Positions 1 through 36,995 are shown, counted from the stretch's first letter. The stretch: 38,955 bases of DNA from Folioceros fuciformis (GCA_049999805.1 JBNGIO010005405.1:62001-100955); one strand, 5' to 3'. The notes: generated by a model not told the origin, from the letters alone. Numbers and translations: made by a program.

Positions 1-2134
1 AAAGGTCAACCATGCAGGCATAATGGCGCATTCCTGGAACGATCCCAAATTTGTCGGACATTGAGCAGAACAGGCGATAACCCTCATCTAACAGCCCAGC
101 ATGGCTGCAGGCGGAAAGAACACAAACCAGAGTGACATCATCCGGCTTCAGTCCCTCTCTTAACATTTGCTGGAAGAGTTGAATGGCCTTTCGACCATTC
201 CCATGCTGAGCATACCATCCAATGGCCGAAGTCCAGGACACTAGATCCTTGTCTGGCATTTTGGCAAAAACGTTCCAAGCATCATCTGGGCTGCCACATT
301 TGGCATACATATCAAGAAGCGTGCTCCTGACAACTGCATCAGATTCAAGCCCTCTTGCCTCAAGTAAGGCATGAACCCTCTTCCCCAAGTTCAGTGCCCC
401 AACCGTGCCACAAGCTTTCAAAAGGTTCAGGAAGGTCACTTTGTCAGGCTGCAGACCCTCTTCTTCCATTCTTACGAAGAGTTTAATAGCATCTTGGCCA
501 TGCCCAGAACTCCCATAACCTCCTATCATGGTAGTCCAAGACACCACGTCCCTGTTTTCCAGCCTGTCAAAGACCTGACCTGCCTCTTTCAGGGCGCCAC
601 ATTTCAGATACATGTCAAGGAGGGCATTTCCTACAACAATTTCACCATTTACTCCCTTTTCCACTATCAGAGAATGAAACTGCTTGCCCTTTTCTAGATC
701 TTGTGCCGCAGCACAAGCGTTCAAGAGGCCCACGAATGTGATACTGTCTGGTTCAAAACCATGCTCCTGCATCTGACAAAACATTTGCAAGGCTTCGCGA
801 CCACGACCATGGTGAGCAAAGCCTGCAATCATAGCATTCCAGGTAACCAGATTTTTTTCCCGGACATTGTCAAACACTCTACGTGCCTCTTCTAGGCTCC
901 CACATTTGATGTACATATCAATGACCGAGTTCATCACGAAAACAGTCATCTCAGACGGCGTCTGTTTGATGTGGTTGTGAATCATTCTACCCTCTGTCAA
1001 AGCTCCTACGCATGCACATGCCTTGAGAGCTGCAGCATAAACATAGGCATTAGGTTTAAGGTTGGACTGTCTCATCTCCAGGTACAACTTGATGCCTTCA
1101 TCGCTCTGCCCATGATTGATATGTGTGAAAATCATGGCCTGCCAGGAGTATGTATCTGGTTCACGGACAGCACGGAATGCTTGATTCGCATCCGCCAAGC
1201 AGTTGCATGAGTCAAACATTCGAATGATGTTTCTGTTCAGAAAACTTGAGTTGAGACCCCTTCGCGTGACAAGGGCATGCAACAACCTTCCAACTTCCAG
1301 GTCCTTTCTCTGTATGCACCCTTGCACGATGCTACACAGTACGTGTGTTGGAATCTCAGCACCTTGCTGGTCTATCCACTGGAGAGCACAACATGCCTCT
1401 TTTAGCCGCCCCTCTATACACAGCCTACCAACAACTTCAATATGCCCAGTCAATCTGCGTTCTTTCCCAGACCTGTGAAACATGGAAGCTCAGAGTTGAC
1501 AATGCACTTACAATACAGTCAATGGACATATCATATTTCCACAGTACCCGTTTAGAACATATACCTGGCTGGATCTATTGAGAGGCTGACGCCGGGCTTC
1601 ACTAAGAATTGAGCCCTTTCTTTTAGACCTGATGTCTTTTTCAAAGCCGCTAACCTCGGCTTCACCCAGGAGGGATTCCACCAGCTGTCCGTCCATAAAG
1701 TGTCCTTCGTCACACTATGAACAAAATCTGGGTAGCTCACATCTGTCTGCAACAAACAGCAGAAAATTCAGACCATGAGGGGAAGAGATGACCACTTCGC
1801 GTAATAGGAACCTTAGATAATTGCAGACCTTTCTCCACCTGTGGTCCCACCACAGCGAAGGATTGGTGAAAAAATTTCTCCACAGATCCTCTGTTGCAAT
1901 CGACTGAGCTGCAGGCCATGACTCACGGCTTGTATCCGCTCTGACGTGGGCTGCGGTGCTGACAGTGAAACACGACCAAACCAATGGAGTAATGCCAAGT
2001 ACACTGCTTACGACATACGCTGCAATTTCTCCTTCCCTGGTCGAAGATCTCGCCCAGAACCTGTGACTAGCATCAGGAAACCAGACTCTGCGCATAAGTG
2101 CTCCAGCCCTCCTGCCCGCCCCCGCTAATGCCAT
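1..2134 (-). CDS. PLS-class pentatricopeptide repeat protein (probable organellar RNA-editing factor) with an N-terminal OSB-type PDF motif; C-terminus lies outside the window
   Basis: ATG at 2134. Exons 2134-1829, 1746-1565 and 1472-1, with GT-AG introns 1828-1747 and 1564-1473. Exon 3 is open to the window edge and encodes about 14-15 P/L/S motifs (e.g. VMNSVIDMYIKCGSLEEARRVFD, NLVTWNAMIAGFAHHGRGREALQMF). It ends in the P2-L2-S2 signature DDVTLVCVLSACSHAGLLDEG...HYACMVDL that normally precedes E/DYW domains. The Arg/Ala-rich N-terminus resembles a transit peptide. Confidence 0.92.
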
Positions 2135-2570
2135 ATCAGTTTCGTCAAGTCATAACTCCCAATTGCCCAGCCTTGAGCTATCCCTTCACCAGGCATCACA
2201 GAACTGCTGAATTACTGCACAGAGACCCGGGAATCGATGTGGGATGCATTTGGCTTCGGATGATTTCCCTTCTCTCCACGCTTCCAGCTTTCGCTCAAGC
2301 AATCTCCTCCCGACCCTGCAGGGTTAGAGCATCAGGACAAGGCATACGACTGCAACACTCCCCAACAAAATTTTTCCCTTTCCACTAAACCCATGCTAGT
2401 CTACACAGTCAGATGTCGCTTCGTGCAATGTAACACGCTGTCGGGCCTTTTGCTACATCTCCTTCCCTCCTTGAAACAAACCAGTACTACTGTACAGAAC
2501 GGAAAATTTGCTGCCCACTGGTACCCAAGGAATTCATGTGGGCTACCTTGGCTAGGGCTGATTGTCCCTT

Positions 2571-2665: not shown

Positions 2666-4081
2666 ATGTTGCGTAAGGTAACATTCCGAACGGACAATAA
2701 CAATGGCCTTTGCTCTCAACAGACAAGCTGCAAATCATAGACTCAGCTGGCATCGTGTTGTGGGAATCTGCAGATCTGGGGGAGACTGGCGACATCACTT
2801 CAAGGAGTGGACAAGCGCCAGTTCCAGCATGAAATTGATACACATCGTCTCTTTCTTCTCACCAGCTACAAGAAGTTGGATTCCCCCACAGAGGAGAATG
2901 TAGCAGACGTGGAAGGTCGTGCAGACAGGACTGGCTTTGAAGAGTGGAAGCAAGAAGTACAAGGTAACGTCGGTGAGCAAGTGCGGGTGATCTGCAGTGC
3001 ATTGGACAACATCTTGCTGGACCCGTCGGAGAGATCAAAGGCAAAAGATGGAGAGGCGGGTAAGAAAAACCGGCCCAGCGGATTGAGCTTCGCCGTAGGA
3101 GGATGGCAGCCAGCCAAGCGCGAGACTGAACCTGCTCAGTAAGGGGCTCACTTCTTTACAGTCGATCGTCTTTATGGCTGCCAGGATCTGCAATGCAAGT
3201 GATACGGTGCTTGTGGCAGGATTGTCACGCTACCCCTGAACCGGGCCCAGGTTTCGGAGGCGTTCAAGGAGAAGCTGGGATTCACTCTGGAGCTCAACCC
3301 TTCCAGAATCGCACACAGAGAAGCAGGTGATGGCCTGTATGTGTCCGGAAAGGCTGGAGCAGGGTCGGTTGTGTCCATGTATCCTGGGGTGATCTACGCA
3401 CCAGCTCAGTATAGATACCTTCAAGGCTACCCAAGGGTGGAGCTGGGCAACCCGTACTTGGTTTCACGGTTCGATGGGCTGGTGATTGATGGCAATCCCT
3501 GGGGCAGAGGAGGGGATACGAGAGAATTCTGGGATGGCATGTCCAAGAGGGATAGAGAGGTGCAGGAGCACATCCTCAAGAGCATAGCAAACGAGCAGCC
3601 GCAGGAGGAGAGCAGCCAAGGGGAGGCCAAGTCTGCCAGCGACAAGCTGTGGCAAATGGTGGGTGGTGGAAGGAAGGGTGATGAGCTGATGGAAGGAGCT
3701 GTCTTAGAGAGGAGAAATCCTCTGGCCCTGGCGCATTTCGCAAACCATCCTCCGAAAGGGGGACAGCCAAATGTAATGGTCTGTCCGTACAACCTCTGCC
3801 TTGATGGTGAAGGAATCAAGCTCAGGCCATACATCCCCAACGTCACTTGTGCCGTGGACAGTGATATTCCGATGCAACAGAGCGGGCTTCTGTGGGTTAA
3901 AAGAAGCAGGGAGACATCAGCAGAGAAAAAATACAAACAACTCTGCACTCTTGTGCTCGTGGCCACCAGGGATGTTTGTGATGAGGAGCTGTTGCTTAAT
4001 TACAGGTACAGCAACTTCAAGAATAGGCCTGCCTGGTATCATTCGGTTGATGAAGAGGAAGACAGGCGCAGGTGGGAATGA
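2666..4081 (+). CDS. SET-domain protein, SETD9/C5orf35-like (plant At5g23200-type)
   Basis: Exons 2666-2677 (MLRK), 2774-3138 and 3220-4081 join in frame across GT-AG introns. Motifs RLFLLTSY, MYPGVIYAPAQYRYLQGYPRV, NPYLVSRFDG, RRNPLALAHFANHP and ATRDVCDEELLLNYR match the SET NH/ELxxxY motifs of this family. Confidence 0.85.
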
Positions 4082-6014
4082 TACCAAAACATTTGGTGCC
4101 TTCATCTACTTGTCCAGCAAAATAAAACATCGGAGATAGTTTAACATCGGAGATAGTTTCACATCGGATGACAACCGTCCTACTGGAGCTCCAGACCTTT
4201 AAGTCGACCGCAACATGCCACGACCATCTGCTATATCGAAATTTATCAGATCCTGACATCCTCGGAAAGAGATGGACCTAAAACCACACTGTGCCCTGGC
4301 AAACTTGGTTCATCCATGGCTTGCATCCGTCACTTGCTCCGGTCAAGACTACGATGGAACACATCCTCGCACTAGGCAAATCAAGTATGCGATGCCCAAG
4401 CTTGACAAAGCTCAGGGGAGGAGCATCGAAGTCTGTAACAGCCTATGATCTGATTCCTCATTCGAACTCCTCTGTGCAAGGCAAGTAGCCCGGGCATCTT
4501 TGAGTGGCAATTTCCGTTAGAGCCACCTTAAGCACGAAAATGTGTGTTGCCGTGTCTCAGTCGTGAACGAACACTGGGATAATGAAGTGTCGAGCAACTT
4601 CAACAGACCATTTCCAAGATCTTGTCAGAACACACATCAAATTTTCCACCTCTTATTTCATACCTTTTATTTCTTGCTTGGTTTTCAAGCAGATGTTGTT
4701 ACTATTAACTTAAGCCCTTACTTTTGTAGGTTTTTCAAGTGTTGCCAATTGCTGCCCAATTCTTTCAAGGTGTGGTGTTGTTTGCTATTCAAGCCAACCT
4801 TTTATGCCATCCCTAGTGACATGAGTCGTTTTGTTTTCCTACTCAGCACACAGTTAATGTGCTCCATCCCTAGCCTCTTTGTTTTTTTAGCATCCAGGAA
4901 GCAAACTATTGGCTTGCAGAGGCTTCTAGGCAGCAAACTAGCAACAAAAATTGAGAGGCTTCACATATGAGCTTCCAATGTTACAAAACATTAGCATCCA
5001 CAGCTTTATATTTGATTTTGAACAATCCTCCTCAACTCAACCAATCACTCCAATTACTAACAAAGGACTTGTATATACCTTTGCTATAAATATTTTACTC
5101 TGGTCAAGCCTTGCACCCCACTTTGTACGACGTCTCAATCCGAAGTAGGACTGCGCATTCTTGCATGAATAATATTGTGTCTTATTTTAAATCAAATTGC
5201 ATTAATACACTTGTGTTCAGTAGAGATTGCTCCTAGAGCTGCTCTCAGAGTATCAACAACCTTACAGATGTGTACGAATTGTTGAGCAATACATAATTAG
5301 CATAAAACCACATTCTTGTTGGCTCACCTCAAACTAGAATAACAAATGCAAACTAATCTTTGTGTATATCAAGAGGTGCTTTCTTCTTTCTATTTTCTTA
5401 CCTTATGTTATTTACTTTTAAGGTTCCTCTGTTAAAACATCCAAAATTACCAATGTATGTAATATAATTAAGTAAGGCAGCTGGAAAAAGAAACGTTTTG
5501 AATCTTTGGGCACACCTTGGGAGTGGATTGTCTGCATAGGTATTTCCAGGTGAGAAAAGCATCTTTGAAAGGGGAAAGCTGGAGTCCAGGGGGAATAGAG
5601 TTGCAGAGGCCGTGCTCGCTCGAGAGGGGACCACATACTGTACATAGCTACATCTGTACAGTAGGTAGCTTTTGTTGGAATGGGCGGAGGCAGGGAAGCT
5701 TGTTGGGAGTCTGTGAGTGTGGGAGAACACAGTTGTCGGAGTCGGGCTTGTTTGAGGTAATTGGTCGGGGTTAGGGTGGAACGATTTAAAGAGGTGTGAC
5801 GCCAGCCGGGCTTCCGACCTCCTTGCTTTGCTTCATGTTGGATTGTGAAACCTAGCAGTTTCCTGTGTTAGCACACACTTGCTGGCTGTCCCGACACACA
5901 ATTTGCACATGGCGCTTCTCCTTCCTCAGGCCTCGGCGTTTCCCAGTCTCTGAGTCGGCTGCGTGGCTTGGGTTTGTTGTTAGGTTGGAGCTCGACACTG
6001 GGACCCGGACAGGG

Positions 6015-6908
6015 ATGGACTGTGTGGTGCAAGTGGACACAGTCGAAGACCCTGTGAGGAGTGTGAAAAAGGTTCGTGGCTCCTCTAGGTTTGTCCGGGT
6101 GTGTGAGTGCCAGGGGCGTGTCGGAGGAGTAGCGGATTTCTCATCGCTCGGTGTGCAGGAGGGAGGCTCAGCACCAAGGAGGTGTGCCAACATCAGACTG
6201 GTTGGCAGACACCCGGATGTGTATGAGCCTTGTGATGATACGTTTGCCCTTGTGGATGCTCTGCTGGCGGATAAGAACAACATCCTGCGGGACAAGCCTG
6301 ATGTGTGCGTAGAGGTTGGATGCGGGAGTGGGTACGTGATTACTTCGCTAGCTCTGCTTATCGGCAGCGAGCATGCCGCGCAGTATATCGCCACGGACAT
6401 CAGCGAGGCAGCTGCCGGGGTGACGAGGAGGACTCTGGAAGCGCATGATGTGAAGGCGGAGGTGTTTGTGACAGACTTGGTGGCAGGGTTGGAGGATCGG
6501 TTGGCCGGTGCCGTGGATCTGCTTGTGTGCAACCCGCCTTACGTGCCGACGCCAGAGGAGGAAGTCGGAGCTCCAGGCTTGACGGCTTCGTGGGCCGGGG
6601 GCAGCAGGGGCCGAGTCGTAATCGACCGCTTGCTAGTTCTTGCTGACGAGCTGCTAACAAGAAAGGGATGCATGTACTTGGTGACGCTGGCGCAGAACAA
6701 CCCGTGTGACATCTGCCGGATCATGAGCAAGAGGGGCTTTGCTTCACGCATCGTCATCCAGAGGAATACGGAAGAAGAGAAGCTGCTTGTATTGAAGTTT
6801 TGGAGAGACGAGTTTCATTCGGACTGGTCCGAGTACAGCTCCAGTCCCCCAACTTCCGACTTGTCCTTCACTTCCAAGATGGCTCGTTTGGCAACTTTCT
6901 GGAGATAA
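6015..6908 (+). CDS. HEMK2: HemK2/MTQ2/N6AMT1-type SAM-dependent methyltransferase (eRF1 glutamine methyltransferase catalytic subunit)
   Basis: Family motifs VYEPCDDTFALVDAL, motif I EVGCGSG, catalytic NPPYVPT and WAGGSRGRVVIDR. First in-frame ATG at 6015, probable 87-nt in-frame intron 6072-6158, stop TAA at 6906-6908. Confidence 0.9.
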   Translation: MDCVVQVDTVEDPVRSVKKVRGSSRFVRVCECQGRVGGVADFSSLGVQEGGSAPRRCANIRLVGRHPDVYEPCDDTFALVDALLADKNNILRDKPDVCVEVGCGSGYVITSLALLIGSEHAAQYIATDISEAAAGVTRRTLEAHDVKAEVFVTDLVAGLEDRLAGAVDLLVCNPPYVPTPEEEVGAPGLTASWAGGSRGRVVIDRLLVLADELLTRKGCMYLVTLAQNNPCDICRIMSKRGFASRIVIQRNTEEEKLLVLKFWRDEFHSDWSEYSSSPPTSDLSFTSKMARLATFWR

Positions 6909-8959: not shown

Positions 8960-11865
8960 TCAACTTGGGGGGAGTCTTCCACCATGAGGTGAAGGTGCTT
9001 GCCTGATCCCAGCTGACCCGAACTTCACAGGTCTGGCAGCATCTCGCCTGGCTCCAGGAGTTCGGGCCCACTTTGCGGCATGGGCAAGGGCGTCTCCATG
9101 GGCACCAAGCCCCCTTCGCCCCACAAGCCTGGCTTTAAAACTCTCAATTAAAAAACGCAATCTCATTTCATCTCCTCCCCCCACTCCCATCAACTCGAAA
9201 GCTTGAATCCGACTGATAACAGAGTACAACTTTAAAGGTTCTTTCAATTGTTCTCCATTTTGGCCTTCACCTATGAATCCACTGGGTCTTCTAGTGGAAT
9301 CCACCAAGACCACCCTCAGTAACACGGAGGACGTAGGGTCCTTAGTTCGGGGATCAAAGATAACATCAAAGCACCCAAATTTGAGATCCGGTTCATTGAA
9401 AATATCTTCCATAAAGTTAGCACATGCAGAGGGATCCTTCTGTATACCTCGACTCAACTTCGTAGTGCTAGCCAATCGCGCTGCAGCTCGAACTGCGATA
9501 TTACCCGCCTCTCGTAGTCCACTCAGAAATGCCCCATGCATTGTTGCAGGATAGCGACGATTTGTGGCTTCACCGGCAAAGAAGAGTCTTCCATCTCCAA
9601 CACTCTCAGCCAAGATATCGTAATCCTCTCCCGAAGACCCGACAGCCACATTGGAATACGATCCATAGCATAGGGAATCATTGCCCCAACGAGTGCACAC
9701 AGACTGCAGGGGGTCTGGCACAGTGATGCCAAGCGGTTGGTAGATCCCTGGCCACCAAATACGTTAGAAGGTTGCAAATTGTGGTCCCCCGAGGACAAAA
9801 CTGGGAGAGGGAAAAAAGGAAATGTACCTCTAAGAACATTCAAAACTCGAGTGACAGCCTCCACAGGAGCCATATCCTCAAAGTTCACAGCGGACTGCCC
9901 AGCCACAAGGGCCAAAAGTAGAGGTCCACCAGCAACTGCAGCATAGCTGTAAAACATGAAAAATTCACCGTTCGTCCTGCGATCATCAGTCAAGTGTCCA
10001 AAATGATCGAGCTCTGACCCCCAGAACGTCTGGGGAAACAGCATCACCACCTTATTCAGGAGCCCAAACCCTAATCGTTGGATGGCATCGAGCTTCCTCT
10101 GCGGCAGCTCAGGATGGAACTTGATACAGCCCCTCTTCAAAACACCAAGTGGCACTGTACATAACGCCATATCTGCTTCAAACACCTGATCAGCAGTTTC
10201 CACCTGCACCCCTACATCCGAGTACGTGATTGAATGTACAGTACTACCATAAAAAATGGGTATGTTTTCGGCCAAGGCAGCTATGAGCCTGACGTTTCCC
10301 CCTGCCAGCCAACAATGATCTCCTCCCATCTCGTATGGGTCATCCTGGTCCCAATGGGACAGCGACAGCTTTGAAAGGAGCTCAGCGTTCGCGTACTCGA
10401 GATTAGCAACGTGCCAATCGAACAGCTGCCTTTCTTCCTCCGTCTCCACTACACCTAACTTAGCCCTAAGCACGTCCAGCGCCCCACCCAAGGACAACTC
10501 TTCGGCATTCTCCACCTGCTGTCTGTATAAGCTTACCTCATCTAGAATATCATTGAAGTATTTCTCCATCTTCTTATCTAACACCTGCCTGACAGGACTC
10601 CCATCGGGCTGAAACAGGGGGCACGGCTCCCTGATTTTATGAAGAGGATACCCGAGCTGTCTGGCAAGCACAGCAAGCGGATTCCCGTGCACACCCGTCA
10701 CAACACTTCCTCCCATATCCGCTGCAGCTACTACGGTGCCCCCCAAGGTCACGCCCTCCATCCTCTTAGTGTACACCCGACCACCAGGACGTTGCCTCCC
10801 CTCCAAAATAACCACCTTATGCCCGAAGGCCAGCAGCTGTCTGGCAGCAGCAAGACCAGCAAACCCCGATCCGATAATCACCACCGTGCCCTTGTTCGGC
10901 TCTTTCGGAATGTTGGCTTTGATAGCCGCAGCCACTCCAAAATTTATGTAACCATACTGCATGAGGAATTTGTAAGCAACCGAAACAAGCCCTCTAAACT
11001 TGGTCTGAATTGTTTCCATCACCGTGTCCTGCGACAACCACGCACTCACGTTCTCCCGCCACCTAGTCAGAATGTGATTCCTCACCATGATGTAATTTGC
11101 CCGCTCGTGCGCGCTGGTATCGCTCGGCAGCACCTTAGCTGCCACCTCCTCGTCACTCAGGAACTCGCGAGAGAAGCCAATAGCGGCTCCAATCATGGCC
11201 TCCATGTTGTTCTCCTTCGCCGTATCCACCTGCTTCTTCTTCCGCCTCCCAGGCCCTGCAATGTCCCCGATCTGCTCGTCGATCATGGAGTCGAGAGCCG
11301 CCTCATCATAAGTCTGCGGCCGTGCGTGCTGCCTCACCGGCCGCATCCCTCTCCCCCTCACTTGATTCTCCTCCATGTCCATAAAGAGCTCTCGGGGCTT
11401 CCGCTTCCGCTTCTTCTTTCCCGCCGCGCCCCCGGCTCCTCCTTCCAATTCTTCTGCTGCAGCTCCTGCTCCCTCTCTCCCTTCCACAGCACTCCCAGCT
11501 CCATCTCCCGCTGCAGCCTGCACAGCTCCGTCACCGTCTCCAGTCGCCGGAGCTCCTCCATCTTCTCCGTCTCTCCCTGTGAGAGAGATCCTCTCCCCTC
11601 CATCTCCACTACCACTTCCATGACTCCCATTTCCCGTTGGAGTTGGAGGTGCCGGAGCAGAGGCAGGGTCAGAGCCAGGGGCGGGAGCAGCTTCATCCCT
11701 GTTTCCAGGCTCAAGAGACGCCGCGTCTCTGGCTTCACCTGAAGCGAGTGCCGAGTGCCGAAGTGGAGGCCTAATTGCAGGGGACTCTACACGGGGAGCT
11801 GCAGAGCCACCATTTTGTGAAGCTGGTCTGGCAATGTCATCCAAGGATGGTAACTCGAGAGACAT
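8960..11865 (-). CDS. FLD: Lysine-specific histone demethylase 1 homolog, FLD-like (SWIRM + FAD amine oxidase)
   Basis: ATG 11865 (MSLELP). Exons 11865-9828 and 9747-8960 with an 80-nt GT-AG intron, giving [16 protein letters not shown]. Contains a SWIRM region ([15 protein letters not shown]...YGYINFG), FAD motif [26 protein letters not shown] and [26 protein letters not shown]. The C-terminal [10 protein letters not shown]...LVGRRGLG is typical of the FLD clade. Confidence 0.92.
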
Positions 11866-12396
11866 GCTGAACGGGAGAGATATCCAGGAGCATCGAAACC
11901 GACAACAGCACAGCCTTTGCTTACCACCGATCCGCTCAGCTCCTTGCTTCAACCATCGTGGCTTTTGCGTCCACCAAACCTAAGTATCATAGTGCAATAA
12001 TATGGCAGATACGGGGTAACTTCTCTTTCTTCTCGGTACGTCCCACGATCACTGTCTGTATCGGGTGACACCTAGTGAGAGTAGAACGATGGAAAGAAGC
12101 CAAAGACAGAACAAAAAAACCCACTCCATGTAAGGTTAAAGGAGCATCTAAGATTATTATGTTCTAATTAATGCTCCTATAATATGATAGGTAGAACAAA
12201 TAGATTACAAATCAAGGAGTTAGAGGAAGAAGTATGCAGGCTCTTTATTAAATGTTCACTTACTTAACCACTCCTCAAACAATTCATGTAATGTAAGTTG
12301 CTTATTTATCTTAGATACCCATGCTCCTAAAAACACTCGGATTGTGCCATTTAGGATCTAAGTTCCCTACAGAACAAAAGAAAAGCTATACTCTAA

Positions 12397-17057: not shown

Positions 17058-19802
17058 ATGCCGGGTCTTTTTCGGTGTTTCCCTGAGGTGCATTTCCACC
17101 ACGGGCGAGTGAGAAGTGTACCAGCACTGGTTAAGAGGCTGTTTAACGAGGCTACAAATGGGAAGGAATCCATGAATGCTCTGGATCTCTCTGGTTTCAT
17201 CTCGAGGGTGCAGGGGGATTCCTTTGTGGACGAGGTGAAAGCTGCGGACATAATTGGGAAATGCAATTCGGAAGGAGGTTCTCATTCTCACCGTCTATTC
17301 GGTTCACATAGCAGCAGAGACAGTATGAGTAACGTCGAACTTGATTTACAAGGATTTTACAACTACTTGCTGCACAGTGATTTAAATAGTGCAGAGGCAA
17401 CCAGCTCCAAGGTAACAACAGCCGTCTGTTTGTTTGGGCTTTGTGAGAGGTGGAATTCCACTCTGTCCAGCTTATCACGGTTTGAATGGTGATATTTTGA
17501 GTTGCACAGCCAACCCAAGATATGACAGCTCCTCTCTCTCACTATTACATCTACTCGAGCCACAATTCTTACTTGACTGGGAATCAACTGACGTCGAGAT
17601 CAAGCACGGAGCCTATCGTGAAGGCCTTACAGGATGGGTGCCGTGTCATCGAACTTGACTGCTGGGGACGGAAGGGAAAAATCATGGTTCTACACGGGGG
17701 GTAAGTACTCTGACTTCCTTCTACAGCCACGAAGAAGCCTGGTTGGTGAAATCCGTGCTGTGTGGACTGTCGTGGCCTCTGTTGAACCCATACTGTTCTT
17801 CCTTCAGCACGTTGACAAAGGCTGTACCTTTTGCGGATTGCATAACGGCAATCAAGGAGAATGCGTTTGTTGCATCCGAGTATCCAGTGATAATAACAAT
17901 TGAGAATCATCTGTCACTCGAACTACAGCAGCAAGCCGCTCAGGTGACCACCTGAGTCTCCCTCCTAGTTTCTGGTTCAGGACATGAGACAGAGCAGTGA
18001 ATGTGTGACCTGATTTTGCTTGCTGCCGTTTGGCAGATACTTGTTTCCACACTGGGGAACTTGCTCTTCATTCCCCCAGCAGAGGAGCGGCCACCAAAGG
18101 TCTATCGTTCTCCGGAGGACCTGAAGGGGAAAATTATCATATCTGATAAACCACGTTCCGAAGCTGTGGAGGAGCAGGTGCATCCCTTTCTCTGTAGCGT
18201 TGGATACAGGCATTGCTGGATGTTGTTCCTCCACCTGAAAGTCTGTACGTACCCTGATGTGCCACAGGTGCAAGAAGATCCTGATGGCGCTGTGGGCATT
18301 TTGCCAGAGGTAGCAGCAATAGGAGAGAGACCGGTTGAAAATGATCCACCCAGGAAGCTGGGACCAGGCATGAAGGGGACAAAGACAAAGGCAGCTCAAT
18401 TTACAGTGCAAAAGGCAGCTGCTGCCATGGATGCGATCGCACACCACAGGCCAGATTCCGTTGAGGAGGATCAGCAGATAGCCACAGAGTTTGAACACCT
18501 TCTTTACATCTATTGTGAGAAGCCATCAGAAATGAAGCAAGCAGTCAAGGATCTACTTGTAGCTGGTGAAACCCGCACCATGGCCAACATGAGTGAGCCT
18601 CAACTGAAGCGAGTAATCGAGAAGAATCCTGGGTGCCTTCTCCAGTAAGAAAGCGAAGTGCATTAGAGACTTCGGTTCTGGCTTGCCCAGAGTTCGTCCT
18701 TTGTGAATGCTTTGTGTGTGTCTTGGCTGGAAATTAGATGGGCTTCGTGTAGTGGTGGCTAATTGAAGGTGAGACTGTGTTAACAATTGCAGGTACACGA
18801 GGACTAATCTGGGAAGGATGTATCCATTTGGCCTGCGTGTCGATTCTTCCAATGCAGACCCAATGCTAGCGTGGAGTTATGGTTTCCAACTCGCAGCAAT
18901 GAACATGCAAGGGTCAAATCGTGCCACTTGGATCGGTCGAGCTTTTTTCAACGCTAATGGTGGGTGCGGCTACGTCAAGAAGCCTGACCATTTCCTCGAC
19001 GACCGCGCAGCTGACATACAAACTCTTCCTCCGAAGCTAATTCTGAAAGTCAGTGTAGAGACAGGTGTTTGTGTTCCGTACGTGCACTTTTCGTTGTCGT
19101 CCAGTAATAATCTAACTGCGTCCTTTCAATGAGCTCGAATGTAGGTCAGGGTGCTGGCGGGAACAGATTGGCACAAGCATTTCGATATTTTTAAGAAGCC
19201 TGACTTTTACGTTAAGGTCTGATGGCTCACATCTGTGGTCGTTGTTTGTAGTTGTATCCTAGAACACTTCAGTCCTCCATTCGGACAGTAGATGTATCCT
19301 AGAACATTTTAGTCCTCCATTCTGACATTGGACATGGCAGGTGGGCATTCATGGTGTGGATGCTGACGAAGCTGATCACAAGACGCCCGTCGCTCACAAG
19401 AGCAGGGAGCCCCTTTGGGAGACCGAAATATACGAATTTCCCCTGACAGGTGTGCAATTTTCTTCACCGTTGACGACGGCATGGACTGTAGGAGACTGAA
19501 CAAGTTCTGTCATTTACCTGTGGAATATGATCCGGTGATATTGATGTGTGGACAACCACCTTGTGGTACTGACGAAGACCCATTTGTTTGCAGTCCCAGA
19601 AATCGCAGTGCTTAGGCTGGAAGTGTGGGAGGACGACAAATTCCAGCGTAATAAATTTGCCGGACAAGCTTGCATTCATGTAAAGGTAATGCAGCCTGGC
19701 ATACGGGTCGTCCCCTTGTTTTCCAAGAAGGGGGTAGCTCGGGGGTCCAAGCTCCTGCTCGAAATCGTCCGGGAGTCGGTGAATGGATTCAGTTTGAGTT
19801 GA
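17058..19802 (+). CDS. PLC: Phosphoinositide-specific phospholipase C (EF-like, X, Y, C2 domains)
   Basis: Nine exons: 17058-17411, 17510-17700, 17808-17943, 18037-18177, 18268-18644, 18793-19048, 19145-19216, 19341-19449, 19594-19802. X-box [52 protein letters not shown]-box [32 protein letters not shown]2 PDFYVKVGIHG...[15 protein letters not shown]. Confidence 0.93.
19253..19326. repeat. 40-bp-period tandem duplication inside PLC intron 7
   Basis: TGTATCCTAGAACA(C/T)TT(C/T)AGTCCTCCATTC(G/T)GACA at 19253 and 19293. Confidence 0.85.
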
Positions 19803-21400: not shown

Positions 21401-22272
21401 TTTTATGTTGAAAACCTTAGTCGAACAAAGAGAAAACTACAAGTGGGAAAAAACACTTTGCAAATCCGTCTTTCACACAACAAAATGATTCCAAAATGAA
21501 CATGAGAATCCTAATGACAAAACAAGAGACCAGGATGGAAACATAGAGGGTTTAATTCTTAAAAATACCATAATTTGAATCATTATGATAAGTCTAGTGT
21601 AACTAAAAGACTAGTGTATGGAGACGGGAGAAACACACAATACCTAATCAAGTCCCCACAATGCACTCAAAAGTGCTTTGGCCAATGACTGCATAAAACT
21701 TCCTGCAAGGGGTAGAACATTGCTTAGCAGGTAACGTGAAATGGCACACACATATTACATCAAATTTAATACCTTGAAAAAACTTGTGCTTATCTTCGAC
21801 TTCCAAGCCTCACAACTGGCTGATAGTTTCCTGAACTCGTCATTCGGCACCACGTAGAGGCTTTAATGTGTGACTTCGAGGTTTACGTTTCTAAACATAT
21901 ACTGTTGCTCAACGTTTCATTTTCCTTTTATGTTAAATGCAACCTGAATGAAATAACTGTCTTCACCCGGTCCTGCCTATGGGAAGGCCTTTCTCTCGGC
22001 CCCCAGACACCACGACCACATTCTTGCAAGATGTGAAGCTACGCCATCCTGCGCACGCGCAAGAAGTGTCAATGGAAGTTCAAGAAGACGCAACGGAAAA
22101 ACAGGGGCTGCTCTCCAGAAGGAAGGATCGTCACTCCGCAGCAGCTCATTCTGTAAGGCAAGGCACATGATTTCTGTCAATCCCAAGTATCCTCCACCAG
22201 AATGCAGTCGCATTTTTGACTGCAGAGGCTTGGCCTGATCTGCTGCAAGAAGGTTGATTCTCCGAGGTGGCG

Positions 22273-24357
22273 ATGGAGGTTGATGAAGATGAGGGTGAGT
22301 CAGGAGCCAAGGTGGTGGTTGGCCTGGACTTCGGGACAAGTTTCTCTGGATTTGCATTCTGCCACAAGAGTGACCCCGACCGGATCAACACCTTCTACGA
22401 TTGGCCCGACCAGGTGAAGGGTGGCAGCAAGCCTTACTGCAAGACACAGACCAGCCTTCACTATGTCCTTGCACGGGGGACAGGACCCCATCGCAGCGAC
22501 GAGGATTACGTGTTGAGGAACTGGGGGTGGTCTGCACAGGTTGGGTATCTGGAAGCTCTTCAGGCTTGGTGTAAAAGGGATCAGAAGCAACGCGTTGAGG
22601 ATCTGCAGGAGGAGGTTGGCTATCTTGTCAAGAGGTTCAAAGTCCGTCTTGCAAGCCGGCTGTCAGAATCCCCGCTCCCAGCTGGGAGCCCGGACTTGCT
22701 CCTTGCTCCAGGCCCAGGAAGAGGGAGGCAGAGCAAACTGCTGTCCTCGGCACTCAACTTCACCAAGAGGATCTTCAGCAGCCAAGACCACGGCACCCCG
22801 GATACAGCCTGGGACAGCATCAAGGCGGAGGTGGAGTGCGAACGCAAGAAGCATGACGCACTGGCCCTCTCCGTCCTGGACGGCCTCCCTTCTGGCATGA
22901 GCGTGGAGAGGGCCATCTCGGACTACCTTGCAAAGATGACGGACTTCATCATGGCACATCTCCAACACACATACGGCAAGCACCTCACCAAGAGACAGGT
23001 CCAATGGTGCCTCACAGTTCCTGCTATCTGGGACGACCGAGCCAAGCAGCACATGCGGAGCTGCGCAGAGAAGGCAGGCATGGTGACAGGAATGTTCTGC
23101 CCTGAACAAGCAGCAAATTTAGCCAGCCCGCATCCCCTGCAGATCGTCCTGGAATCCGAGGCTGCCTCCGTCTACTGCCTTACCAAGTCCAAGCTCCTGG
23201 GCCTGGGCAAGGGATCCCACTTCCTGGTAGCCGACGTCGGAGGCGGCACAGTGGACATCGTCGTTCACACCATGTCCAGCTCCACCCACGGCACGAAAGC
23301 TCTCAGTATGCAGGAAGCCAAGCAGAGCACAGGCGGCCTCTGTGGAGGTTCCTATGTCGATCATAACTTCCTCTCCTTCCTGTCTCACAGAATCGGAGGC
23401 TTCGACTCCTTCGTCCGAGCCAACCCTACCTTTACGCCGATCCTTCACCGACGATGGGAGGAGATCAAATGCAGCTTCGACGGCTCTTTCAGCTGGGACC
23501 AGAGCCTGGATTTCGAGCTTCCCCGCAAGCTGGCCACAGCATGGAAGCGCCATGACGTAGAAAACGGAAAGTTCTTGGCCAGCAATAACTACGACGAGCT
23601 CGCCATCTCCGCTTCTCAGATGAAGGACATCTTCGATCCAGTGATCGACCAGATCCTGGACCTGATCCGGGCACAGATGTCGGCCGAGATCAAGGTGCTG
23701 ATGATCGTGGGAGGATTCTCGGCCTCACCATACCTGAACCGGAGATTGCGAGGCGCGTTCGGGATGCAGGTCGAGGAGATAATCTGTCCCCCGGACCCGG
23801 GCAGCGCCATCTGCCAGGGAGCTGTGGCACTCGGGGCTTCCCCTTGCAGCATCGTCACCTCCAGGATTGCCAGGAGGACGTACGGAATCGCGACATTCAG
23901 AGACCCGTGCAGCATGGACCCGCCGGGATCGCAGGTGCTGCGGAACGGGAAGCTGCGATGCCGAGATGGTTTCCACATCTTCGTGAGGAAGGGAGACCGG
24001 ATAGGCATCGACCAGTGCGTGAAGCATCGATACTGCCCCGCCGTGGACGATCAGCAAGGCATCCGCTTCGAGCTCTTCAGCTCGCCGTCACCGGCACCAG
24101 TGTATGTCACTGAGCGAGGAGTGCAGCTGGAAGGATCTTTCTTGTTTGACATCAGTGGAGACGCATCCAACCTCGGCCGCCTCCGTAGCGTCTGCATCTC
24201 CATGTTCTTCGGCCGCTCCTGCATAGAAGTCCGGGCGCAGCGGCAGAATTTTGGAGACGTCAATGAGGTGGTGAAGCTGGAGCCCCTGGGAGGATTGGCT
24301 GATCCGTTTGCGTTCAAGAACGGGGAGCTTCAGATGCTTGTCCCCATGTCACCGTAG
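22273..24357 (+). CDS. Atypical Hsp70-superfamily ATPase, HSPA12-like; intronless
   Basis: 694-aa single-exon ORF with VVVGLDFGTSFSGFAF, DWP...YCKTQTSLHY, WCLTVPAIWDDRAKQHMR, LESEAASVYC, ADVGGGTVD, CGGSYVD, IVGGFSASPYL and SRIARRTYG. This motif set matches the HSPA12-like nucleotide-binding domain rather than DnaK (no GIDLGT/TVPAYF, no EEVD). Confidence 0.85.
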   Translation: MEVDEDEGESGAKVVVGLDFGTSFSGFAFCHKSDPDRINTFYDWPDQVKGGSKPYCKTQTSLHYVLARGTGPHRSDEDYVLRNWGWSAQVGYLEALQAWCKRDQKQRVEDLQEEVGYLVKRFKVRLASRLSESPLPAGSPDLLLAPGPGRGRQSKLLSSALNFTKRIFSSQDHGTPDTAWDSIKAEVECERKKHDALALSVLDGLPSGMSVERAISDYLAKMTDFIMAHLQHTYGKHLTKRQVQWCLTVPAIWDDRAKQHMRSCAEKAGMVTGMFCPEQAANLASPHPLQIVLESEAASVYCLTKSKLLGLGKGSHFLVADVGGGTVDIVVHTMSSSTHGTKALSMQEAKQSTGGLCGGSYVDHNFLSFLSHRIGGFDSFVRANPTFTPILHRRWEEIKCSFDGSFSWDQSLDFELPRKLATAWKRHDVENGKFLASNNYDELAISASQMKDIFDPVIDQILDLIRAQMSAEIKVLMIVGGFSASPYLNRRLRGAFGMQVEEIICPPDPGSAICQGAVALGASPCSIVTSRIARRTYGIATFRDPCSMDPPGSQVLRNGKLRCRDGFHIFVRKGDRIGIDQCVKHRYCPAVDDQQGIRFELFSSPSPAPVYVTERGVQLEGSFLFDISGDASNLGRLRSVCISMFFGRSCIEVRAQRQNFGDVNEVVKLEPLGGLADPFAFKNGELQMLVPMSP

Positions 24358-33870: not shown

Positions 33871-35942
33871 TTCCATTTGGACGCCATCTTCTCAAAACCT
33901 TAACACCTGCTTATAAAGCGATCGGCATGTGCGATCGTCCAGTGGCTTCTGAGGTACCGGTCTGCGTATAAATGAGGGCCGATCGCGAGCCAGCTTTCTA
34001 GCTCGGCTAAGCTACATAGATGAGTGTTTGTTGCTAACCGATCCAGACTAGTGTTCTGTATGCGCAGCGTTGTGGTAATCAGCTGTATCGCGCAGAATCA
34101 TGCTATGGTAATGCAATGAGACCCTTGAGCTTGTGGGCATTCTCGCAACTGCCCTGCTCGTTTGATCATACTCAGTGTTCATCCGCAGTTATTCACATCG
34201 GACTGTGATCGAGATAGTAATTTCAGCCAAGTCTTGTCACTTGTGTAGGTGCACCACCTACTCACCAACGATCGTGGATCACCCAGCTGCTGGCCTGGGC
34301 CTTTCTAAATTTAACCTTGCGTGCCCCAGACTTTCGGACACTAAGATAATTCCTGCCCGGATCCTCCACAGGCTTTCCAAACGCTGCCGAAACGAACACC
34401 GATCTTCGACCTCTGACACAACGTTGTGGCACTAGACTAATAAGAAAACAGAGAAGCAACTTCATCTGATTGGAATGAGGGTGAAGTGATTGGGCTAAAC
34501 GCGGGCCAGTCAGAAACTAGAGGAATACAGTATACTATGGAGAATCTAGAAACGCACGTGCATCTCGGGGACAATGATGTACTACTGGAGGAGCTGCACA
34601 TGAAGCTGCTCAGCTAGGTTGTAGGATAGAAGCACCGAATCACGGAGAGTGGAGAGTCGAGAAGCGCCTACTGGCTCCTGCTGCTTGCATTCGAATGGCT
34701 ACTTTTCTATCAATAGGTTGAGTCCTTGTGGGCTTTTCATGGGGAATTCGTTTCCAGACCGGCTGTACATGTCTTGCTCAAGTTGAAGGTCAGCAGGCCA
34801 CATTGATATTGAGCCTCGATCAACTTTTGAGATTTCTTGTCCCCATATTCAGGTTCACAATGACGGCAACAACAAGAGGCATCTCCAGAAAGTATGTGAG
34901 GTTATTTTGCCGGTCACTTCTCCAGATCTGACTTCATCCGGATGTTCCAGCTAACTGGTTGTGTCACCGTGTCCACCTCCAGCATGCACATGCCAACAAA
35001 AGCCTGCCCGTGGCATGGCACAAGCGGCCGTGATATGCTGCAACACGCTTCCACAGAATGTGTACTAGCCGCCTCATCTGATCGCGAATCCTCACCTGCC
35101 AGTGGGATTCCTGACCGGGCCCGCCGGCCGCTCGTCGAGTCCAGGTAAACGGATTTTTTGGTGTACCACCATGTATACGGCCCCACCGTATAGGTCTTGG
35201 ATCCTTGCGAGCAGCCAGCCGTGATGAGCAGATCCTGCTCTATCACGACAGCGCACTTCACACAAAATGACTTGGACTGCCATCCCGTCGAAGACCGGAG
35301 TTCGGAGTTCAGACATCCTCCCATCTTCCACAGGTAGCTTGTGTGGGTACGTACATGATGGCCAAGTCAAGGAAGCTGCTGTCAACGATCCAATCCACAT
35401 TCTTGACTTGGGCAGGGCAAGGGACGCCATGCCACATGTTTCTGCCATGCTCTACATCTGGCAACCACGAGACTTGAGTCGGCCAAACTAGAAAAGTCCA
35501 AACAGTCACCGCTAACTATCGGGATTAGCCACACCGGTCTGCAACAGACGGAACAGAAACAGCATTACAATTGCGGAAGCTGCAGAGTCGCATGCTGGTT
35601 AATCCTCCAGCGTCCAACACGATTTTTGCCAGAGTCTGGTTGTCTCGCGGGTACGACAAGTTGGCCTGACTCACAACCCAGCTGCGTTGTGCCTGCCATG
35701 TCCAACCCACACAGACTTCATAGCCGGTGCTGCAACCCACAAGGGCTCGGAACTCGACCTCCGCATTTAGGGCTCAATCGGTGCGAAGGTGAACATCATC
35801 GAGAAACAGAACCTGACGGTCCGGGATCAGGAGCTGACAGGCAGGAAATTCCAGGGACACATGTGATGCCATGGCAGCCTTTACGCAGCACAAGGTTGGG
35901 GTGCAGAATGCTGTCTGTGGAGCCTTCCTGGTAGGCCAGGCC

Positions 35943-36995
35943 ATGGAGGGCACGGAGGTGGAGGAGTTGGCATGGCTCGTGAAGGACAACCTGTACAGCA
36001 AGCATCTGGTGCTGTCGGTGGAGGAGATGTTTGTGGAGTTTCTACAGGATGGCGCAGGAAGTGGGAGTGGACAGGACGTGCTACAGCTGAAGCCCATGGA
36101 TTCGTACCAGAGGATGCTGCTGCACCGGCTGGCCGATCTGTTTGGATTAGCTCACGAGTCGGTTGGGGAGAATGAGGAGAGGCATCTGGTGGTCGCCCAC
36201 AGCGCCGACTCCTCCATCCCGGAGGTACTGGTGAGCGACGTGCTGGCCAAGGGTCCCGGCGAGGCGGCCGCGAGGGAGCCCCACGGGAGCAAGCTCCTGC
36301 TCAAATCCGAGTCCGGATCCGCGGCATCGGCAAGGGGTCTCAAGAGGAGCGCCGTGGTGCAACGATCTGCCGTGTCCCTGGAGGAGCGGGAGGCGGCGTA
36401 CTCGGCTGCCAGAGAGCGGATCTTCGCAGACGGAGGATCGGGGCACTGCGACAGGGTTCCCAGCGCCAGGCCCGTACCCTTGGCTGCTCGCAGGATGATC
36501 GCCCGTGCTCTCGGCAAGCCGCGTATTGGGGACGGAAGCCCTGACTCGGCGAGAGACGTGCCGGATGCCGAGCCATGCGACCGGAAAGATGCGAGAGATG
36601 GAGAAACCCTAGCTATGGCAGAGGGTTCGCCTTCCTCCTCTGGCCAGGGTTCGCTTCAGCAGGATGATGGGTCTCGGCGAGCTGCCCGGTCGTCAGCTAG
36701 GGCGGCTACTAGGATCTTCGCCCAGGCCCTGGTCTTGCCCGTCACGCATCCGTCCAGGCAAGCTGGAGCCTCAGATCCAGGTCGTGACAGGAGCAGCAGG
36801 GGCCACGGCGGTGATGTTGCCTCGGATGTTGTGGGACGCAGAACGCCGTCTCCCAGGCTGAAGTATGCTAGTCGTGTGCGGGACGATGGCGGCCCTGATG
36901 CGGGAGCAGGAAGGACGCGAGGGCGAGCTGCACTTCCTCTATCTTCCTGCCGACTCGCTGATGACCATGTTGCATCGTCAACAAGTGCGTCGTAG
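35943..36995 (+). CDS. R3H and SUZ domain single-stranded nucleic-acid-binding protein
   Basis: VEELAWLVKDNLYSKHLVLSVEE, R3H core PMDSYQRMLLHRLADLFGLAHESVGE and SUZ motif SLEEREAAYSAARERIF, followed by a disordered tail. The start could be the upstream in-frame ATG at 35871. Confidence 0.87.
   Translation: MEGTEVEELAWLVKDNLYSKHLVLSVEEMFVEFLQDGAGSGSGQDVLQLKPMDSYQRMLLHRLADLFGLAHESVGENEERHLVVAHSADSSIPEVLVSDVLAKGPGEAAAREPHGSKLLLKSESGSAASARGLKRSAVVQRSAVSLEEREAAYSAARERIFADGGSGHCDRVPSARPVPLAARRMIARALGKPRIGDGSPDSARDVPDAEPCDRKDARDGETLAMAEGSPSSSGQGSLQQDDGSRRAARSSARAATRIFAQALVLPVTHPSRQAGASDPGRDRSSRGHGGDVASDVVGRRTPSPRLKYASRVRDDGGPDAGAGRTRGRAALPLSSCRLADDHVASSTSAS

Follow-up and report, generated by a model that had tools for sequence, protein, structure and literature searches.

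Introduction

The usual picture of a PLS-class PPR editing factor, of which PPR56 from Physcomitrium is an example, is that of a transit peptide followed by the repeats and an E/DYW tail. It is the 5' portion of the cis-element that is bound by the N-terminal repeats of such factors. In flowering plants, the editing helpers known as the MORF/RIP and ORRM proteins act in trans, and the factors of the E class require a deaminase that is likewise supplied in trans.

A different set of organellar proteins, the OSB family, is distinguished by the PDF motif. According to passages of two reviews, this motif of ~50 residues is responsible for the binding of ssDNA by the OSB proteins, and in AtOSB1 it is sufficient on its own for that activity (PMC6963530; PMC4166229). 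Both AtOSB1 and AtOSB2 are described as preferring ssDNA over either dsDNA or RNA (PMC4166229). A survey of OSB genes from 2026, according to its methods, retained only those proteins containing an OB-fold-like domain together with a PDF domain, and because both domains were demanded, proteins in which a PDF domain is joined to a PPR array would have been dropped (PMC13393729).

Described here is a minus-strand gene located at the left end of a stretch of DNA of 38,955 nucleotides, hereafter referred to as the window. Its product carries a PDF domain on a PLS-class PPR protein, and this identity and architecture can be assigned with very high confidence. With respect to function, the explanation that best accounts for the observations overall, and which is held with somewhat more confidence than doubt, is that the PDF domain would provide the PPR protein with an accessory contact to single-stranded nucleic acid.

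Gene organization

Joining of the three exons by script yields one open reading frame of 653 codons that is free of stops. The initiating ATG is positioned at 2134 on the minus strand, with an upstream in-frame stop at 2150-2152. Exon 1 (1829..2134, minus strand) comprises 102 codons and encodes, in addition to the start, a putative presequence of ~80 residues and the first half of the PDF domain. Intron 1 (1747..1828, minus strand) is 82 nt in length, has GT..AG ends, is in phase 0, and interrupts the PDF domain. The second half of the domain and part of the linker that follows it are provided by exon 2 (1565..1746, minus strand), which is separated from the last exon by intron 2 (1473..1564, minus strand), a phase 2 intron of 92 nt that also displays GT..AG ends. 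Exon 3 (1..1472, minus strand) encodes the end of the linker and the PLS-class PPR array and is still open at the left end of the window. A 5' untranslated region extends over 2135..2247 (minus strand), at least in relatives, as defined by the extent of their contigs, which reach upstream to 2207 in the runs labeled X3 and X5 and to 2247 in X2.

Contigs from four sequencing runs, X1, X2, X3, and X5, were placed on the window. Run X2 represents one organism (B), whereas X3 and X5 represent another (C). These last three runs derive from three studies, are ~88-93% identical to the window, and are taken to be RNA runs by guess only. In each of them a single contig spans exons 1, 2, and 3 and skips precisely positions 1747-1828. 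For the second intron, the joint in all three runs falls at 1470 to 1563, with 92 nt being skipped, and an equally good fit two places further on corresponds to 1473-1564. At both joints the contigs of X2, X3, and X5 show CT..AC ends on the plus strand. Thus, a joined form of the exons exists, whether these contigs represent cDNA or processed copies. The coding part of the relatives' contigs contains a single insertion or deletion, namely the loss of 3 nt at 2005 in X2, and the 1-nt insertions or deletions at 2155, 2158, and 2160 all lie 5' of the ATG. Given that the single-nucleotide changes are upstream of the start and that the coding change is of 3 nt, the reading frame is kept in the relatives. 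The contigs of run X1 are 100% identical to the window where placed, and they cover 1-856, 980-1148, 1162-1455, and 2130-2339. None of these pieces crosses either intron, and they speak neither for nor against splicing.

The exon 1/exon 2 junction was also compared by BLASTP with two annotated lycophyte proteins, hereafter P0002 and P0015, in which the motif is uninterrupted. The residues encoded at the 3' end of exon 1 and at the 5' end of exon 2 are collinear with residues 72-95 and 100-131, respectively, of P0002 and with residues 23-40 and 42-75 of P0015. These alignments leave no space for a residue to be gained or lost at the junction. The gene model is correct, with the splicing being shown in relatives rather than in the window's own organism. 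The first-pass annotation of this DNA had proposed both an 82-nt intron at 1828-1747 that splits the motif and a second intron from which the frame continues into a PLS array. The ends, phase, and skipping of the former in the X2, X3, and X5 contigs, together with the 92-nt intron at 1473-1564, the frame of 653 codons, and the bridging contigs, bear out both proposals.

Identity of the PDF domain

The first half of the domain is encoded by the 21 codons at the end of exon 1 (1829..1891, minus strand; residues 82-102) and has the pattern W..FF.NP..WWD.R..K. The second half, with the pattern PDF.H....LW.....P.WV, arises from the 35 codons that open exon 2 (1642..1746, minus strand; residues 103-137). 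The domain was scored with a profile HMM of 56 positions that was built from 13 PDF motifs belonging to five SSB-domain proteins of the OSB type only (P0035, P0043, P0049, P0055, and P0038). In the spliced product this HMM recognizes one domain, which extends from residue 82 to 137, covers positions 1-55 of the 56, and scores 52.3 bits. When considered alone, the first half aligns with HMM positions 1-22 at 21.0 bits, and in BLASTP searches it matches residues 72-95 of P0002 with an E-value of 1e-7. The corresponding values for the second half are positions 24-55, 28.9 bits, and an E-value of 3e-9 against P0002 as well as against P0015. The two exon ORFs, scored separately, yield 29.4 and 21.7 bits, the sum of which is close to the score of the spliced product. 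Among the 833 six-frame ORFs of at least 30 residues in the window, the next best reaches 10.6 bits, and when the N-terminal 170 residues are shuffled 1000 times the top score is 7.3 bits. In an alignment of 30 sequences, the window copy retains all 16 of the invariant or nearly invariant PDF positions.

When the 60 residues of exon 2 alone were run by HMMER against a full set of 1.84 billion representative proteins, 33 proteins were returned at E <= 0.001. The PDF tripeptide is found in its canonical context in 31 of these, and one or more PDF domains are recognized by the HMM in 30. The exceptions are P0026, which is a biased repeat protein, and P0052, along with P0050, which is an exception by the HMM only. 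Pfam assigns an SSB domain to six of the 33 proteins and PPR arrays to two. Five of the six SSB proteins were identified, namely those from which the HMM was built, although the SSB score of P0038, at 23 bits, falls under the Pfam cut-off of 26. Two of the matches carry OSB names in their source records: P0055 from Chenopodium quinoa is listed as 'protein OSB3, chloroplastic/mitochondrial-like' and P0034 from Cardamine amara as 'Protein OSB3'. Calculated over the entire library, the E-values of exon 2 against the OSB3-named and SSB-domain proteins lie between 3e-6 and 6e-4. A word-indexed search of longer proteins with exon 2 gave 71 candidates, none with E <= 1, a null result that reflects a limit of sensitivity rather than absence, since the full HMMER scan did find matches. 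Pfam contains no family matching the PDF motif in exons 1 and 2. The only Pfam row for these exons, a zinc-binding viral domain with an E-value of 0.091, was treated as noise.

Judged by its sequence, the motif represents a true PDF domain that is homologous to the one found in OSB proteins. The first-pass annotation had recognized it as an OSB-type PDF motif and had suggested that the spliced N-terminus be scored against an OSB-derived HMM; the score of 52.3 bits, as compared with 7.3 for the best shuffle, and the 16 retained positions agree with that assignment. It had also placed the motif at 1655-1890, which is the right location, but the extent is slightly wider, with the domain occupying 1891-1829 plus 1746-1642.

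The possibility that the protein is an artefact, due either to a chance resemblance or to the misjoining of two separate genes, has a probability close to nil. It draws on the fact that the bridging contigs come from relatives and not from the window's own organism. It is countered by the difference in score between the domain and the best shuffle, by the occurrence of bridging contigs in three runs (X2, X3, and X5), and by the existence of contiguous annotated proteins with the identical order of parts.

The window protein resembles the OSB proteins in having a putative N-terminal presequence and a full-length PDF domain (HMM positions 1-55 of 56, with the 16 key positions), and the number of PDF copies is variable across the family. 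It differs from them in lacking an SSB-like OB fold. A Pfam SSB (PF00436) domain is not recognized in any of the three exons at E <= 1, and without this central domain the window protein falls outside of the OSB family. The order of the parts is different as well. Whereas the PDF domain of OSB proteins is positioned C-terminal to the OB fold, that of the window protein is N-terminal to the PPR array.

Predicted fold of the PDF domain

AlphaFold models were examined for two short proteins of the family, P0045 and P0054, the first of which is an N-terminal fragment that clusters with the PDF-PPR protein P0071. Both models display the same compact PDF unit, in which three short strands or bridges lie between two helices. 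The pLDDT values for the PDF part are 92-95 in P0045 and ~88 in P0054. A Foldseek search of the PDB with these two models returned no match at E <= 0.001. In a comparison by VIA-align with 48,161 chains, the best Z-score for P0045 was 4.6, with the majority of its matches located on the N-terminal helix, and that for the isolated domain was 2.2. At the level of sequence, a search of the PDB gave no match for exon 2 at E <= 10 and two chance rows for exon 1 (E = 0.35 and 2.3). On the basis of these predicted models, a solved relative of the fold was not recognized, which does not imply that the fold is novel and provides no mechanistic clue. The ESM Atlas matches to exon 2, at best 0.75-0.77, belong to unrelated phage and bacterial clusters and lie below the level of a lead.

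Presequence, linker, and PPR array

The first 80 residues of the protein contain nine arginines, no lysines, 15 alanines, and ten serines, with aspartate and glutamate together accounting for only five. Such a segment, rich in arginine, alanine, and serine and poor in acidic residues, fits a presequence, and the protein is probably targeted to an organelle. A linker of ~30 residues connects the PDF domain to the PPR array. Exon 3 then encodes four triplets of the form P35-L35-S31, followed by a P2 repeat of 35 residues, an L2 repeat of 36 residues, and 11 residues from the beginning of S2. Pfam recognizes PPR_2 and PPR in this exon with E-values of 1.3e-73 and 5.5e-56, respectively. The organization of the array is that of the PLS class, as had been proposed for the motif-bearing frame from the start: the PDF domain is spliced in frame to four 35-35-31 triplets, P2, and L2. 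As no more than these 11 residues of S2 fall within the window, any C-terminal E or DYW region would lie beyond it. In run X1, a contig of 5.9 kb extends ~5 kb past the left end of the window and should include the C-terminus. Since the C-terminus lies outside of the window, a role in editing is drawn from the PLS organization and from the relatives discussed below.

With PLS-class editing factors of the E and DYW types, the window protein shares the 35-35-31 triplets, the P2 and L2 repeats and the start of S2, and a long array exon that is free of introns. It is unlike them in that an extra folded domain is inserted between the presequence and the array and in that the gene contains two short 5' introns.

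PDF-PPR proteins in lycophytes

The N-terminal 200 residues encoded by exon 3 were compared with proteins longer than 858 residues. The search yielded 25 PLS-PPR matches, with the top ones being from Diphasiastrum complanatum (53% and 36% identity) and further ones from ferns, Ginkgo, Selaginella, and flowering plants. Taken by themselves, these top matches would point to a lycophyte as the source of the window. In two of the 25, P0002 and P0015, a contiguous PDF motif is located ahead of the repeats. The former (Diphasiastrum complanatum O6H91_10G080800) contains 1132 residues and has an E motif at its end. The latter, from Selaginella moellendorffii, contains 917 residues and is annotated as 'PPR At3g02330, mitochondrial-like'. 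None of the five fern proteins among these 25 matches has a PDF domain, which is a very small sample.

Residues 60-140 of P0002 were next used as an N-terminal module query against proteins of 622-1981 residues. Of 48 candidates, 39 proteins were matched at E <= 0.001. All 39 are from Diphasiastrum complanatum, all belong to PPR Pfam families, and together they represent 38 distinct locus tags. Because the words were drawn from one Diphasiastrum protein, a search of this kind finds close relatives only. By the OSB-derived HMM, each of these 39 proteins has from one to three PDF domains, with scores of 42-84 bits. Six of them terminate in CSCGDYW and on the basis of these termini are proteins of the DYW type, whereas the remaining 33 have no DYW end. 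Additional proteins with the PDF-PPR architecture emerged from the scan of representative proteins, namely P0037, which corresponds to Diphasiastrum O6H91_01G119900 (KAJ7570437.1) and 12G041000 and has an E motif; P0027, a transcript-derived protein of 1371 residues with three PDF domains; and P0071, which has 692 residues and an E+ motif. In the public records these proteins are named either 'hypothetical protein' or generically as PPR.

As far as the sequences go, there is in lycophytes a sizeable family of PDF-PPR proteins to whose architecture that of the window gene conforms. Shared features include a putative presequence, one or more PDF domains, a short linker, a first repeat with the signature LC.EGRL, and a PLS array. 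The window protein has one PDF domain as compared with one to three in the Diphasiastrum family, and in the 200 residues at the start of exon 3 its identity to P0002 is only 36%. The notion of an isolated chimera, with which the first-pass annotation had begun, can thus be set aside, for the window gene belongs to a large family that includes 38 Diphasiastrum locus tags and P0015 of Selaginella. The accompanying suggestion that such proteins might already be present, unremarked, in fern or hornwort proteomes was right in that they are unremarked in public proteomes, but they were found in lycophytes instead, in both Diphasiastrum and Selaginella.

The full text of Creative Commons papers in PMC and of bioRxiv was searched, a scope that does not extend to subscription papers, including the large PPR surveys, and no description of a PDF-PPR fusion was encountered. 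Within the same full texts, 'PDF motif' occurs together with 'pentatricopeptide' only in one review, where PPR is linked to RNA polymerases, and data on the binding, localization, or editing activity of any PDF-PPR protein were likewise not encountered. The lycophyte family thus appears to be undescribed.

The 33 Diphasiastrum members without a DYW end would need a deaminase in trans. They thereby lend some weight to a reading in which the PDF domain is a module for protein-protein contacts, interacting either with PDF-bearing proteins, such as OSB or other PDF-PPR proteins, or with some other partner, and so serving as a built-in helper or assembly handle. The available literature passages on the PDF motif, however, make no mention of protein contacts mediated by it, and this reading is considered quite improbable. 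A nucleic-acid contact by the PDF domain remains the preferred explanation.

Conservation of the PDF domain

Mean pairwise identities were calculated for the separate parts of the Diphasiastrum paralogues. The PDF domain adjoining the array averages 76% (n=39), and the first 420 residues of the array 71% (n=35), as compared with 56% for the linker (n=35) and 26% for the presequence (n=30). The average array identity of 71% marks the Diphasiastrum set as a young expansion. Even within this set, conservation is much stronger for the PDF domain than for the regions on either side of it. The window copy, though distant from the Diphasiastrum set, still has all of the key PDF positions.

These values bear on the proposal that the domain is a functionless passenger, that is to say, that the exons for a presequence and a PDF domain were captured once from an OSB-type gene for the purpose of targeting and have since been carried along. 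The youth of the Diphasiastrum set is in keeping with such a history, and the high identity of the PDF domain may partly result from recent duplication. A passenger would not be expected, however, to be conserved at 76% next to a linker at 56% and a presequence at 26% in the same proteins. In addition, all 16 key positions are retained in the window's distant copy, for which the PPR region is 36% identical to that of P0002, and the same architecture occurs in Selaginella. The passenger proposal is accordingly viewed as very improbable, and a PDF domain that contacts single-stranded nucleic acid is still favored.

One difference from the OSB proteins concerns the PDFKHK segment. Both lysines are present in OSB and in most of the Diphasiastrum copies, whereas they are replaced by a valine and by a serine, valine, or tyrosine in the window protein, P0015, P0071, and P0042, with the window copy having valine and serine. 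Given these replacements, the nucleic-acid binding of the window's PDF domain may differ.

A tree was calculated by a quick search from 144 PDF domains and 56 columns. As can be seen from it, 71 of the 74 PPR-linked domains fall within one group of 77 rows, for which the SH-aLRT value is 93, unstarred, and which is weakly supported. The window domain groups with those of P0015, P0071, and P0042 with a support of 81 and a warning for long branches. The three domains of P0027 lie outside of the main PPR-linked group. With 56 columns the tree is too weak for the number of fusion origins to be counted from it.

Proposed function

The window gene would encode a nuclear-coded, probably organelle-targeted PLS-class PPR protein of the type that recognizes C-to-U editing sites. 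Its array would read the RNA upstream of the target cytidine, and the PDF domain would be positioned at the array terminus directed toward the 5' side of the RNA to which the array is bound. Because the linker leading to the N-terminal end of the array is only ~30 residues long, the PDF domain would be placed beside the transcript upstream of the footprint. There it could add a sequence-independent, single-stranded contact, most likely to the stretch of transcript immediately 5' of the PPR footprint, and such an added contact would be expected to result in a higher affinity or a longer residence time. That the PDF domain has a role in binding single-stranded nucleic acid is regarded as an evenly balanced proposition, and the choice of RNA as its ligand, rather than organellar ssDNA, is tentative and somewhat doubtful. 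Against an RNA ligand is the preference for ssDNA over RNA described, in the passages available, for AtOSB1 and AtOSB2 (PMC4166229).

In functional terms, an analogy may be drawn with the MORF/RIP and ORRM proteins, in that a module is added that might raise the activity or the affinity of a PLS-PPR protein. Those helpers are, however, separate proteins from unrelated families, whereas here the PDF domain is fused in cis.

Tethering of the protein to the nucleoid, which was first put forward in the first-pass annotation, is the main rival to an accessory contact with the transcript. In this rival reading the PDF domain would bind organellar ssDNA, in the form of transcription bubbles, R-loops, or intermediates of replication or recombination, and thereby couple editing to transcription. 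It is in keeping with the ssDNA-binding activity of the PDF motif and with the favoring of ssDNA over RNA by OSB1 and OSB2, as reported in the available passages (PMC6963530; PMC4166229). The one to three tandem PDF copies in the PDF-PPR proteins, as in OSB, point in the same direction. On the other hand, the subgroup to which the window protein belongs is without the two PDFKHK lysines that are found in OSB, and a domain attached to an RNA-bound array is kept beside RNA. Tethering to ssDNA is thus considered unlikely, and an accessory contact to single-stranded nucleic acid, most probably the transcript 5' of the PPR footprint, is retained as the working description of the window protein.

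A broader speculation, itself unlikely, is that in clubmosses, and perhaps in all lycophytes, a large share of the organellar editing factors carry a PDF domain fused in cis that replaces the helpers of flowering plants, either by clamping the transcript beside the footprint or by docking on nucleoid ssDNA as the RNA emerges. If true, this would constitute a lineage-specific route by which PLS-PPR proteins attain their working affinity, and it would represent a physical link between parts of the genome-maintenance machinery and RNA editing.

A conserved folded domain ahead of the repeats, occurring in dozens of paralogues including DYW proteins, would be a new part for the editing machinery of early vascular plants. 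It offers a handle on two questions, namely by what means editing factors that lack the helpers of flowering plants achieve their affinity and whether a connection exists between editing and either the nucleoid or transcription. The PDF domain is also shown to be a portable module that is not exclusive to OSB proteins and, as a small natural add-on domain, it may be of interest for the design of synthetic PPR editors.

The Ends of the PPR Gene

The minus-strand PDF-PPR gene (exons at 2134-1829, 1746-1565 and 1472-1) is open at the left end of the window. A contig of 5912 bases from X1, a run that is 100% identical to the window where aligned, matches positions 1-856 and reaches approximately 5 kb past that end. 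The C-terminus of the PPR protein, which is missing from the window, should lie within this contig. On the 5' side, the contig from X2 (a run from a relative, organism B) that bridges the coding exons also aligns to 2351-2587 on the minus strand, skipping 2248-2350. This gap may represent a 5'-UTR intron or, alternatively, an indel in organism B. The contigs from X3 and X5, both runs from a second relative, organism C, end at position 2207. No Pfam family was matched by the ORF adjoining the 5' end of the gene (3203-4078, 292 aa).

Other Open Reading Frames in the Window

According to Pfam, a long minus-strand ORF at 9526-11979 contains a SWIRM domain and a flavin amine oxidase domain, and a second ORF on the same strand, 8963-9763, carries the end of that oxidase domain. 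This domain combination is that of LSD1-type histone demethylases. On the plus strand, Pfam matches correspond to a small methyltransferase domain (5856-6905), a PI-PLC X fragment (18001-18645, weak), an Hsp70-like protein (22258-24354, weak), and R3H and SUZ domains (35838-36992).

PDF Domains in Other Proteins

Outside of the window, P0029, a 1160-residue protein from the flowering plant Kingdonia uniflora (KAF6142360.1), contains 12 PDF domains by HMM versus 13 PDF tripeptides. P0038 from Striga hermonthica (CAA0829756.1, 1063 aa) displays three PDF domains and an SSB-like stretch (23 bits), despite its source name of "Interactor of constitutive active ROPs 2-chloroplastic", and is possibly a merged gene model. 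With the profile derived from OSB-type proteins, tandem arrays of six to nine PDF domains, each scoring 27-58 bits, were observed in proteins of Symbiodiniaceae dinoflagellates, namely P0048 from Cladocopium sp. Y103 and P0051 with its cluster mates from Effrenium voratum.
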